A stretch of DNA of 57,657 nucleotides from Chlamydiae bacterium CG10_big_fil_rev_8_21_14_0_10_35_9. GTDB taxonomy: Bacteria; Chlamydiota; Chlamydiia; Chlamydiales; SM23-39. Every line of letters begins with the position of its first letter. Within the stretch, counting starts at the first letter, position 1. A program made the position numbers and the translations under genes. The notes below the pieces were generated by a model. It was not told where the DNA came from, did not search any database, and was given only the letters and a program-made list of their open reading frames with translations. Location: assembly GCA_002773835.1 (NCBI GenBank), contig PFAC01000005.1:1-57657 (forward strand), given 5' to 3'. This document shows, one piece after another, positions 31,796 through 42,843 of this stretch.

Positions 31796-32734
31796 ATGCT
31801 TACTTATCAAAAAGCTGGAGTTGATACAGCAGTTGCAAGAAAGTTTGTAGAAGCTATTAAGGAAAAATGTCCTGATATTGGGGGATTTTCTGGTCTTTAT
31901 CCTTTAGGAAATCAATTTCTAGCTGCATCTACAGACGGTGTGGGAACAAAGCTGAAACTTGCCTTCGATCTGAATATCCATAACACCATTGGCATCGATC
32001 TGGTAGCCATGTGTGTCAATGACATATTAACTTGTGGTGCTAAGCCACTTTTTTTTCTGGATTATTTTGCTACCTCTAAACTGGATTTGGATGTTTCAAA
32101 AAAAGTGATGGAAGGGATTTTAAAGGGGTGTGAGTTAGCAAATTGTGCCTTAATCGGCGGCGAGACGGCCGAAATGCCCGGGTTTTATCAAGAGAAAGAA
32201 TATGACCTTAGCGGTTTCGCTGTGGGTATTATAGATAAAGACAAAGTTATCGATGGTAAAGCAGTCGAAAAAAATGACTGCTTAGTAGGTATTGCCTCAA
32301 GTGGTGTACATAGTAATGGGTTTTCCCTTATCAGAAAAATTTTGGATGTAAAAACTGGAAGTTTAAATACTCCCTTTCAAAATACAACCTTAGGAAAAGC
32401 ATTATTAACACCTACTACTATCTATACTTCGCATGTGCAAGATTTACTAAAAAAACACTCCATTAAAGCTATGGCTCATATTACTGGCGGAGGTCTTCAG
32501 GAAAACATTGAGAGGGTAATACCAAATTATTTATCAATCGAATATGAACTTCCTAGCACGCCTGCGATATTTCAATGGATACAAGACATGGGAAACATTG
32601 GCTTGCAAGAGATGTTATCTACTTTCAATATGGGAATTGGTTTTGTACTTATCGTAGATGAACAAACAGCTGAAAAGATCTGTCAGGCAAGTTCAGACTA
32701 TTTTCTTTTTGGTAAAGTAATAAAAAAATCATGA
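31796..32734 (+). CDS. purM: AIR synthetase (phosphoribosylformylglycinamidine cyclo-ligase)
   Basis: Y..AGVD, TDGVGTK, DLVAM.VND, GGETAEMP, G.HSNG.SL, HITGGG, TFNMGIG. Confidence 0.96.
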   Translation: MLTYQKAGVDTAVARKFVEAIKEKCPDIGGFSGLYPLGNQFLAASTDGVGTKLKLAFDLNIHNTIGIDLVAMCVNDILTCGAKPLFFLDYFATSKLDLDVSKKVMEGILKGCELANCALIGGETAEMPGFYQEKEYDLSGFAVGIIDKDKVIDGKAVEKNDCLVGIASSGVHSNGFSLIRKILDVKTGSLNTPFQNTTLGKALLTPTTIYTSHVQDLLKKHSIKAMAHITGGGLQENIERVIPNYLSIEYELPSTPAIFQWIQDMGNIGLQEMLSTFNMGIGFVLIVDEQTAEKICQASSDYFLFGKVIKKS

Positions 32735-41421: not shown

Positions 41422-42843
41422 ATGTGTGGGATTTTAGGGATTGTAAGTAAGCAAAGTGTTGCTAAAAGCTTATATCATGGGCTTATCCAGTTGCAACATC
41501 GAGGTCAAGATGCCAGCGGCATATATTTATATGATGCAAAATTACAAAAAGAGCATTTAATAAAAGATACAGGTTACGTCCATCAAGTATTCGACCGGAA
41601 TGAATTGGAAAATTTCTCACATAACTGGGGGATTGGTCACGTCAGATACTCTACTATTGGCAAAGGGGACAAAAGTGAAGCACAACCTTTTGCGGCCTCT
41701 AAAATAGCAGTTGCCCACAATGGCAATATCGTTAACTACATTCCTTTAAAAAGAGCGTTAACAAAAAAGGAGAACTTTTATACAAATTCAGACGCTGAAG
41801 TTTTTCAATATTATTTAAATAAACGGCTAGAGGTTAATGATGACTTTGCCTCTATTTGTACAGCAATACAAGAAATTTATAAAAACCTTCATGGGGCGTA
41901 CTCTGTAGTATGCATTATTAAGAATAAGGGAATTATAGCTTTTCGAGATCCTAAAGGGCTAAGACCTCTTCTTTATGGAAGAAATGGTCCTTTTTTTCAT
42001 GCTTTTGCATCAGAAAGTGCTCCATTAAACTTGTATGAGTGTGAGACCATATATGACCTTGAGCCGGGCGAGGTCATGTTCATCGATCAAAATTTCCAGG
42101 TTCATAAAAAAATTCTGCAGCAAGAAAAAAAGACGACTTGCAGTTTCGAGTTTAATTATTTTGCCAAGCCAAGCTCTGTCATTGAGTCTAAAGAAATTTA
42201 TAGAGTTAGAGCAAATCTAGGTATTGAGCTTGGAAAGCAAGTATTAAAAAAAGGGCTTATTCCTGATGTTGTTATATCTGTTCCAGAATCAGGTAATCCA
42301 GCTGCCATGGCACTCGCACACTATCTTGGACTCCCCATAGAGGCTGGGCTTATTAAACAAAATAATGCCAATAGGACTTTTATTTTGCCTACACAAAAGA
42401 AAAGAGCAGAAGCTGCAAAAAAAAAATGGCTTAGTGTGAACTCAGTTTTTAAAGGTAAAAAAGTTTTATTAGTCGATGACAGTATTGTGAGAGGGACGGT
42501 TTCTAAGCGGGCTATTGAGCTGGCTCGACTTTGTGGAGCTAATGAAGTATATTTTGCCTCAACGTATCCTCCTATTAAATATCCCTGTTTTTATGGGATA
42601 GATTTTAATGTAAAAGAGCAGCTGATTTCAAATAATAAAACAGAAAGTGAAGTGGCAAGAGCAATTATGGCAGACGCAGTTATATTTAATGATTTATCTG
42701 GCCTACAAAAAGCAATAGGCACAAAAGACCTATGTACGGCATGCTTAGATGGAAATTATCCAACCCAAACAGATGGAAAAGAAGAGTTAATGTCTTTAAG
42801 AGAGCATGACTTAGCTCTTCTAGAAACCGTCTATACTGGTTAA
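41422..42843 (+). CDS. purF: Amidophosphoribosyltransferase ([4Fe-4S] type)
   Basis: N-terminal MCG, LQHRGQD, GHVRYST, HNGN, VDDSIVRG, Fe-S cysteines in CSFE, PCFYGID and CTAC. Confidence 0.96.
   Translation: MCGILGIVSKQSVAKSLYHGLIQLQHRGQDASGIYLYDAKLQKEHLIKDTGYVHQVFDRNELENFSHNWGIGHVRYSTIGKGDKSEAQPFAASKIAVAHNGNIVNYIPLKRALTKKENFYTNSDAEVFQYYLNKRLEVNDDFASICTAIQEIYKNLHGAYSVVCIIKNKGIIAFRDPKGLRPLLYGRNGPFFHAFASESAPLNLYECETIYDLEPGEVMFIDQNFQVHKKILQQEKKTTCSFEFNYFAKPSSVIESKEIYRVRANLGIELGKQVLKKGLIPDVVISVPESGNPAAMALAHYLGLPIEAGLIKQNNANRTFILPTQKKRAEAAKKKWLSVNSVFKGKKVLLVDDSIVRGTVSKRAIELARLCGANEVYFASTYPPIKYPCFYGIDFNVKEQLISNNKTESEVARAIMADAVIFNDLSGLQKAIGTKDLCTACLDGNYPTQTDGKEELMSLREHDLALLETVYTG

Follow-up and report, generated by a model that had tools for sequence, protein, structure and literature searches.

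A complete de novo purine pathway in a chlamydial genome, with a probably exchanged operon and a degenerate PurE domain fused to PurC

Chlamydiae are the textbook nucleotide parasites. Why, then, does one of them carry eight contiguous genes for making purines de novo, and where did these genes come from? The genes lie in a stretch of 57,657 nt (the window), which is contig PFAC01000005.1 (C30 in our numbering) of assembly GCA_002773835.1, from Chlamydiae bacterium CG10_big_fil_rev_8_21_14_0_10_35_9, an uncultured organism from groundwater. The host genome (G000) is a metagenome-assembled genome (MAG) of 1.74 Mb in 61 contigs, 92% complete and with 4.2% contamination. A sequence-only reading of this DNA, made without database searches, had described a contiguous and mostly overlapping purM-L-Q-H-C-D-N-F operon, and all eight genes are confirmed. 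Eight open reading frames (ORFs) on the forward strand occupy positions 31796-42843 exactly. Their frames are unbroken, and the NCBIfam and Pfam profiles are covered nearly end to end (E 2e-29 to 3e-160). Neighbouring genes overlap at four of the seven junctions, namely M/L (4 nt), L/Q (14 nt), Q/H (44 nt), and C/D (4 nt); gaps of 53, 18, and 9 nt separate the genes at the remaining three. The features are as follows.

31796..32734, forward strand: purM, 5-aminoimidazole ribonucleotide (AIR) synthetase, 312 amino acids (TIGR00878, 380 bits, E 8e-114, cut-off 236)
32731..35655, forward strand: purSL, two PurS-like modules followed by PurL, 974 amino acids (TIGR01736, 535 bits, amino acids 212-972)
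35642..36466, forward strand: purQ, glutaminase subunit of formylglycinamidine ribonucleotide (FGAM) synthase, 274 amino acids (GATase_5, 244 bits; NF002252, 184 bits)
36423..38045, forward strand: purH, 5-aminoimidazole-4-carboxamide ribonucleotide (AICAR) formyltransferase and inosine monophosphate (IMP) cyclohydrolase, 540 amino acids (NF002049, 464 bits, cut-off 402)
38099..39391, forward strand: purC, succinylaminoimidazolecarboxamide ribonucleotide (SAICAR) synthetase, 430 amino acids, catalytic part in amino acids 1-298 (SAICAR_synt, PF01259, 232 bits, amino acids 17-247)
38993..39388, forward strand: relic of a class II PurE (AIR carboxylase), amino acids 299-430 of PurC (hhalign against intact chlamydial fused domains)
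39388..40662, forward strand: purD, glycinamide ribonucleotide (GAR) synthetase, 424 amino acids, TTG start (TIGR00877, 476 bits, profile positions 1-423 of 425)
40681..41412, forward strand: purN-like GAR formyltransferase, 243 amino acids (TIGR00639, 102 bits, cut-off 150; Formyl_trans_N, 81 bits)
41422..42843, forward strand: purF, amidophosphoribosyltransferase, 473 amino acids (TIGR01134, 394 bits, cut-off 350)

Two features go beyond what had been described from the sequence: a PurS-PurS-PurL fusion and a 132 amino acid degenerate class II PurE tail on PurC, to which we return below. The PurSL protein contains the FGAR-AT linker, AIRS, and AIRS_C domains of Pfam, and its N-terminus matches PurS (30 bits) in two stretches within amino acids 1-170, which makes it a PurS-PurS-PurL fusion. 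This is the architecture known as “mdPurL” or, in JGI annotation, “PurSL,” in which the glutaminase is encoded apart, as purQ; the separate, overlapping purQ frame is kept in the relatives. The purN-like gene is found at the same position in 17 of 25 relatives' loci, in 16 of them between purD and purF and in one (G213) after purD, with purF upstream.

Is the rest of the pathway present? The sequence-only reading noted that purB, purK, and a stand-alone purE are outside the window, and it proposed a search of the genome for these genes as well as for purA, guaAB, prs, and NTT nucleotide importers. All of them are found. The stand-alone purE (202 bits) adjoins purK (372 bits) on contig C51, and purB (361 bits) is on contig C2. 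The remaining genes, all over their cut-offs, are purA (504 bits), guaB and guaA (512 and 382 bits, on contig C34), prs (351 bits), and folD (226 bits); pyrB is also encoded. Among the IMP-pathway genes, only purN and some purQ models fall short of the curated cut-offs. Judged by these matches, every step from phosphoribosyl pyrophosphate to IMP, and on to adenosine and guanosine monophosphate, is encoded. The ratio of nonsynonymous to synonymous substitution rates (dN/dS) against a sister species (G001) is 0.047-0.146 across all eight operon genes (e.g., purM 0.086, purF 0.047), which indicates strong purifying selection on the operon.

The enzyme activities are those predicted from the protein families, and the eight genes would be transcribed as one unit. 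With this proviso, the organism can probably make purines itself. The earlier suggestion that this organism depends less on its host for purines is reasonable, since the pathway is complete in the genome; because NTT importers are kept, de novo synthesis would be an option rather than independence. We consider it likely that a functional operon and a set of unlinked genes let this organism make its own purines while the importers are retained, that the operon is a chlamydia-specific cassette that has been exchanged within the phylum, and that the PurE domain of PurC is a relic.

Distribution and descent among chlamydiae

The operon is rare, being present in about 6% of sampled chlamydial genomes. 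We find purM (TIGR00878) in 25 of 401 genomes sampled across the phylum, the host included, and 24 of these matches are over the cut-off. The counts are 21 of 336 for good-quality genomes and 20 of 211 for genera, and among the 41 genomes closest to the host three have purM over the cut-off. It had been pointed out at the outset that the operon might simply be common in the host's family; purM occurs in only four of 69 other sampled genomes of that family. Among the 25 chlamydial loci that we fetched, 15 have the full M-L-Q-H-C-D-N-F order, and four end at contig ends and are consistent with this order as far as they can be read. Four others are variants in which, respectively, purF is relocated, purN is absent, there is an inversion, or the block ends after purC, and two hold unrelated arrangements. 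Protein identity of the relatives' loci to the window is 45-58% (30-43% in G029). A single cassette can thus be recognised in at least ten family codes.

Some of the unusual loci are worth describing individually. The operon of G393 (locus L092) has no purN between purD and purF; on the same contig there is a sub-cut-off match to the PurK family (G393:C4:1447161-1448228, 194 bits), which may be a PurT that replaces purN. In G230 (contig C5, locus L071, 3816-5870) a different PurC-PurE fusion of 685 amino acids (AIRC, 172 bits) faces away from a purM of 446 bits. Here the phylum has a second set of purine genes, unrelated to the first. The genome G002 lacks purM; at G002:C28:10093-11866 a purE-like stretch (51.5 bits) lies in a 450 amino acid frame beside purB, and may be a leftover PurC-PurE plus PurB.

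The sequence-only reading held that the lineage had retained or acquired IMP synthesis. Which of the two was it? We compared an organismal tree of RpoB and RpoC from 51 genomes (“quick” LG+G4 trees, no root inferred) with a tree of the eight concatenated Pur proteins (the pur tree). On the organismal tree the host's family forms one clade (support 100), within which the host, its sister species, and G186 are grouped as (G000,G001)+G186 (support 100), while the other operon-bearing members of the family (G289, G262, and G015) are interleaved with genomes that lack the operon. The pur tree also recovers (G000,G001)+G186 with support 100, but here G289, G262, and G015 nest among the sequences of another family, and G015 pairs with G281 (support 100). 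On the pur tree, four members of genus g99 fall in scattered positions; three of these genomes consist of a single contig. Monophyly of the host's family on the pur concatenate is rejected by an approximately unbiased (AU) test (log-likelihood difference 1186, p-value 2.6e-5). The case of G015 is the clearest. Its Pur proteins are 76.7% identical to those of G281, which belongs to a different family (f7 as opposed to f1), and only 53.7% identical to those of G289 in its own family; for RpoBC the figures are 67% and 87.9%, respectively. The similarity between G015 and G281 stops at the operon borders. Because the pur tree conflicts with the organismal tree in this way, we infer that the whole cassette has been exchanged between chlamydial lineages and often lost.

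For the host's own lineage the answer is more specific. The operon, its flanks (a gene for a 207 amino acid protein on one side and rsmB-pgeF-rmlC on the other), and the PurE relic are common to the window lineage and to G186, which belongs to another genus. We conclude that the operon has been inherited vertically since the common ancestor with that genus and was already situated between ispD-SDR and rsmB when the two genera split. The alternative of retention or acquisition can thus be sharpened: descent has been vertical since the ancestor of this and the neighbouring genus, and the cassette appears to have moved between chlamydial lineages. At the empty site between ispD and rsmB in two operon-less relatives (G019 and G008), tblastn at E-values up to 1 finds no operon remnants, so that gain and loss cannot be told apart at this site.

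Several points weigh against our overall reading. Regarding function, purN is below its curated cut-off (102 as compared to 150 bits); purEK, purB, and the other unlinked genes are assigned to the genome by MAG binning, a worry eased by the fact that G001 and G186 carry them as well. Regarding expression, predicted promoter sites (32, with 41.6 expected) and terminators (12, with 10.8 expected) show no excess over shuffled sequence, and no RNA run is listed as containing positions 31300-41299. Regarding exchange, the argument rests on quick trees and a two-protein organismal tree. The operon and rpoB are on different contigs in many MAGs, so that binning errors could look like transfer; frameshifts are numerous in several of the long-read assemblies; and the long branch of the G000/G001/G186 Pur proteins makes their position among the other families unsure. 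As a separate observation, the rpoB genes of the few-contig assemblies G015, G161, G281, G336, G390, and G405 are broken by many in-frame stops, mostly TGA. These most likely reflect long-read indel errors, which lower the identity figures of those genomes.

Could the operon be strictly ancestral and never transferred, so that its patchiness is all due to loss and the conflict between trees is an artefact of long branches, misbinning, and assembly errors? The same gene order, PurSL fusion, and PurC-PurE fusion are indeed found across at least ten family codes, and chlamydial PurSL sequences fall on one side of a branch (see below). The backbone of the pur tree is also poorly resolved, with five open forks, and misbinning is a concern wherever the operon and rpoB are on different contigs. 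Against this view stand the AU test, the closeness of the Pur proteins of G015 to those of G281, which ends at the operon borders, and the scatter of g99, a genus with three single-contig genomes. In addition, a published reconciliation infers that purC, purD, and purH had been lost before the last common chlamydial ancestor, according to the part of that study that concerns these genes (PMC9816063). We regard strict ancestry as improbable, though it is the most probable of the alternatives considered.

The C-terminal tail of PurC

What is the extra region at the end of PurC? A direct Pfam and NCBIfam scan recognises no family in the tail, and AIRC (PF00731) finds no match at E-values up to 1 on the tail or up to 0.01 on the whole protein. 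It is the comparison of profiles alone that reveals its nature: hhalign matches the tail to 13 intact chlamydial fused domains with a probability of 98% (E 2e-13; 32% identity over 90 columns), from which we take it to be homologous to an intact class II PurE domain. The motifs GSEKD, SAHK, and AGRSNALSG of the intact domain correspond to GLEVS, a deletion, and ISRENLIFA in the window. An arginine as opposed to a lysine distinguishes class I from class II PurE (PMC10484210, in the part that bears on this mark); we take this Lys-for-Arg mark from that source and the remaining motif labels directly from the alignment. The dN/dS against the sister species is 0.218 for the tail and 0.047 for the catalytic part. 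The tail is under relaxed but not neutral selection. Given the remaining constraint, the relic may keep a structural role.

In most relatives the domain is intact. A search for purE in 52 genomes gives sub-cut-off matches of 89-112 bits within the purC frame of most operons, and AIRC (100-123 bits) is present in 14 of the 20 operon-linked PurC proteins scanned; a twenty-first protein, the different-type fusion of G230, also has it. The intact chlamydial domain scores 84-113 bits to insect and human PAICS and to the class II PurE of Treponema denticola, as compared to 38 bits to the class I enzyme of E. coli. The six PurC proteins without AIRC are those of G000, G001, G186, G350, and G054, which have a tail (402-430 amino acids), and that of G289, which has none (281 amino acids). 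Among the proteins scanned, these are exactly the ones whose genomes have purK over the cut-off, beside a stand-alone purE of more than 200 bits. Throughout the 52 genomes, purK and a stand-alone purE over the cut-off co-occur in the same seven and are always adjacent; the purC piece of the seventh, G305, was not among the loci fetched. The eighth purE to pass the cut-off comes from G230, where it forms the PurE part of the different-type PurC-PurE protein. In the 14 genomes whose fusion is intact, neither purK nor a stand-alone purE reaches the cut-off.

The stand-alone PurE of the host carries the motifs GSYSD, SAHR, and AAHLPG, and SAHR in particular identifies it as class I. In the host the carboxylation step would therefore be performed by this class I PurE together with PurK, the fused domain having lost all of its motifs. 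In most relatives the fused class II PurE would make carboxyaminoimidazole ribonucleotide directly from CO2 without PurK, as animal PAICS does. The six AIRC-less PurC proteins occupy four separate places on the pur tree, which indicates that the displacement of PurE has been repeated. In G289, purK and purE are in one open frame of 638 amino acids (G289:C37:2333-3958), which looks like a PurK-PurE fusion. The PurC-AIRC fusion itself is also found in Woesearchaeota, Beckwithbacteria, and Patescibacteria records, where it is annotated as PurC only. Its presence in Woesearchaeota and Patescibacteria indicates that PurC-class II PurE is a prokaryotic family and not an import from animals.

A dead domain raises the question of whether the whole operon is a decaying, non-working remnant, with the PurE domain as the first sign. 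The sub-cut-off score of purN and the long branches of the Pur proteins in the G000/G001/G186 clade would fit such a view as well. Against it, the eight frames are open and of full length relative to their profiles, dN/dS is low throughout (0.05-0.15), and purE-purK covers the lost activity in every genome that has the relic. Decay of the operon as a whole is thus very unlikely.

Origin, contig integrity, and flanking genes

Did the host lineage recently acquire the operon from outside the phylum? PurSL is the protein that might suggest so. The 120 best PurL homologues are of about equal length, most with PurS and AIRS domains, and the PurSL sequences of Smithella, Proteobacteria, Pseudomonadota, and Aenigmatarchaeota records are 50-51% identical to that of the window; those of Smithella and Pseudomonadota are almost as near as other chlamydial PurSL. 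A putative toxin-antitoxin (TA) pair just upstream might also be thought to point to a foreign donor. However, for each of the eight proteins the closest homologues are chlamydial, and their genes are in the same order. In a FastTree phylogeny of the 120 best PurSL homologues and 22 labelled chlamydial sequences, 99 rows lie on one side of a branch with Shimodaira-Hasegawa support 97, including every chlamydial one except the long-branched G029, and all five named non-chlamydial rows lie on the opposite side. The eight-gene order is present in none of 36 Smithella-type metagenome loci of at least 15 kb. Most of these have purSL-purQ, with purF next in six, and in four no purQ was seen. From its absence there we take the M-SL-Q-H-C-D-N-F order to be chlamydial, and among all the loci examined we found no non-chlamydial genome that has it. 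For PurH, the nearest sequences are chlamydial (51-93% identity), and the others from a pattern scan of species genomes reach 35-37%. That scan gave 13 loci only, and its non-chlamydial members (Melioribacter and Elusimicrobia) were picked by shared peptides; we drew on them neither for an outgroup nor for inferring a donor. The operon of another genus, 53% identical in its proteins, occupies the same site, and the G+C content at third codon positions is the same in the pur genes (0.24-0.29) as in the flanking housekeeping genes. A recent non-chlamydial donor is very unlikely.

The host is chlamydial, as had been proposed. Its genome encodes two full NTT/TLC transporters (PF03219, 749 and 485 bits) and a partial third, a family found in none of 14 control genomes, and the histone-like protein Hc1 (PF07432, 62.6 bits), which one of the 14 controls also matches. 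In the RpoB+RpoC tree it falls within the clade of its family (support 100), its RpoBC is 99% identical to that of G001, and the nearest PurH and PurL homologues are in MAGs of Chlamydiota, Parachlamydiales, Rhabdochlamydiaceae, and Waddliaceae. The concern that the contig might be chimeric was addressed at both borders. An independently built contig of 21,135 nt spans positions 27000-45278 with zero differences (run X1, possibly the source sample), and a contig from another groundwater sample bridges purF and rsmB. At the left border (31796), low-depth contigs of runs X2-X4 cover parts, and no bridging record from outside the possible source sample is among the matches listed. Collinearity with the sister species extends over 31741-45200 (90.5% nucleotide identity). 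The operon-less family relatives G019 and G008 keep the backbone rpsB-tsf-frr...ispD-SDR on one side and rsmB-pgeF-rmlC-rmlD-rmlB-sufBCDS on the other, with no operon between ispD-SDR and rsmB. A contaminant or chimeric contig, for which one could cite the 4.2% contamination of the MAG, can be set aside in view of the separate contig spanning both borders, the bridge in another sample, junctions common to two other assemblies, and flanks that form the backbone of operon-less chlamydial relatives. The contig is sound and chlamydial on both sides.

The genes immediately next to the operon are listed below.

30991..31356, reverse strand: ORF resembling an MqsA-family helix-turn-helix (HTH) antitoxin, 121 amino acids (TIGR03830, 48.7 bits; HTH_3, 29.5 bits)
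31453..31647, reverse strand: ORF resembling a DUF4258 toxin, 64 amino acids (PF14076, 41.5 bits, profile positions 8-70 of 71)
42848..44119, forward strand: rsmB, 16S rRNA m5C967 methyltransferase, the right-hand backbone gene (NF011494, 249 bits)

As rsmB starts 4 nt past purF, it is possibly co-transcribed with the pur operon. The two upstream ORFs had been called a decayed TA pair. They are 96 nt apart with both frames open, so that this description is only partly apt. The toxin profile is nearly complete; on the antitoxin side, TIGR03830 is below its cut-off of 61.8 and covers positions 44-120 of 127 only, so that the zinc-ribbon part is missing. Collinearity with the sister species begins only at 31741, 55 nt before purM, and the 866 nt that the sister species has upstream of this point cannot be aligned with the TA region of the window (31357-31795). 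A search of 30900-32000 with Rfam for a purine or ZTP riboswitch or a leader upstream of purM gave nothing credible at E-values up to 1, and at gathering scores Rfam matches only three tRNAs over the window.

Further upstream, the gap between ispD and rsmB looks like a variable slot. The left backbone gene (24283-25623, reverse strand), conserved in relatives, encodes a 446 amino acid fusion of an IspD/ribitol-5-phosphate cytidylyltransferase-like domain and a short-chain dehydrogenase/reductase (SDR) domain, whose role may be the formation of a CDP-alditol and not isoprenoid synthesis. Between this gene and the operon are an MscK-like mechanosensitive channel (711 amino acids) and the 207 amino acid protein mentioned above, which belongs to no family (25951-28713, reverse strand); the latter is shared with G186, and the channel was not found there. 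A bufferin-type cluster for a ribosomally synthesized and post-translationally modified peptide follows at 28834-30968, with the MNIO maturase BufB (NF050167, 319 bits, over the cut-off) and a DUF2063 partner. The loci fetched from G186, G019, and G008 showed no such cluster, and two small ORFs upstream (146 and 87 amino acids) match no family. An NCBIfam scan of the hypothetical ORFs of 365, 430, 413, 146, and 87 amino acids gave no match. Elsewhere the window encodes a lipopolysaccharide heptosyltransferase II (3613-4665), polysaccharide export and synthesis proteins (9152-15087; Wza-like, a Wzc-like protein of 952 amino acids, and two NAD-dependent sugar dehydratases/epimerases), and rmlCDB (46228-48660).

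Comparison with known systems

A complete purine pathway under selection in a genome that keeps its importers suggests that host dependence in the phylum is graded and reversible. It is tempting to speculate further, although we hold the following picture only tentatively and would put it at somewhat less than even chances. The purM-SL-Q-H-C(E)-D-N-F genes might be a self-contained prototrophy cassette that circulates among chlamydiae, e.g., during co-infection of protists, and toggles them between auxotrophy and prototrophy. The CO2-dependent class II PurE might have been displaced by the ATP-dependent PurE-PurK system at least four times, each time leaving a constrained non-catalytic relic or a truncation, and what may preserve the relic is a role of the PurE core in keeping the PurC oligomer assembled, as in PAICS. 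Whatever the merit of this picture, gene exchange among intracellular bacteria can be tested concretely on the distribution of the cassette, which is also relevant to the published inference that purC, purD, and purH were already gone from the chlamydial ancestor. The recurrent substitution of PurE-PurK for class II PurE, with the relic kept, is a natural experiment on enzyme displacement and the persistence of dead domains. For attempts at host-free culture, chlamydiae that have the operon may be the more promising choice.

De novo synthesis of both purines and pyrimidines has been reported for chlamydial lineages, according to the statements on the subject in a preprint (Dharamshi et al., bioRxiv 10.1101/577767), and nucleotide synthesis is described as “patchy,” a part of the accessory genome, in a passage of a later survey (Koestlbacher et al. 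2021, PMC8242063). Supplementary file 2 of the latter lists purine genes per genome, with the purM orthologous group marked in at least three columns. For Waddlia, the genome paper describes an organism without a complete purine pathway, in its section on the subject (PMC2878342). The host resembles the environmental chlamydiae of these two studies (10.1101/577767, PMC8242063), as far as their relevant sections describe them, in that NTT importers are kept and yet purine synthesis is encoded, as a patchy accessory trait. It differs in what is described: those sections deal with presence and absence, and we describe operon order, the PurSL fusion, the PurC-PurE fusion, and its decay. We found no literature on the operon order, the chlamydial PurC-PurE fusion, or its decay, and the supplements of 10.1101/577767 may say more. 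De novo purine capacity in some chlamydiae is thus already known and not new; what remains of interest is a cassette that is specific to chlamydiae and apparently mobile, and the way PurE-PurK has repeatedly taken the place of class II PurE.

The classical point of reference is the purEKBCSQLFMNHD operon of Bacillus subtilis, which encodes a split FGAM synthase (PurS, PurQ, and PurL). The two operons are alike in gathering most steps to IMP into one unit and in having the FGAM synthase split. They differ in gene order, as the sequence-only reading had also noted; in the window purS is fused twice to purL, and purE, purK, and purB are outside the operon. In the mdPurL of methanogens, PurL carries approximately 200 extra N-terminal residues in place of PurS, according to the portion of the study that describes this protein (Brown et al. 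2011, PMC3261824). The window protein is similar in that an N-terminal extension replaces PurS and PurQ is separate, but its extension scores as two PurS modules. Its nearest non-chlamydial relatives are from Smithella and Pseudomonadota and not from archaea, apart from one record labelled Aenigmatarchaeota.

In most of the chlamydial relatives, as in animal PAICS, a single chain combines SAICAR synthetase with a C-terminal class II AIR carboxylase, and there is no PurK. They share the SAHK and AGRSN(A/G)L motifs with PAICS (PDB 2h31, 4ja0) and with the class II PurE of T. denticola (3rg8). The PurC of the window is unlike PAICS: its carboxylase is a relic without motifs, and the genome has a class I PurE plus PurK instead.

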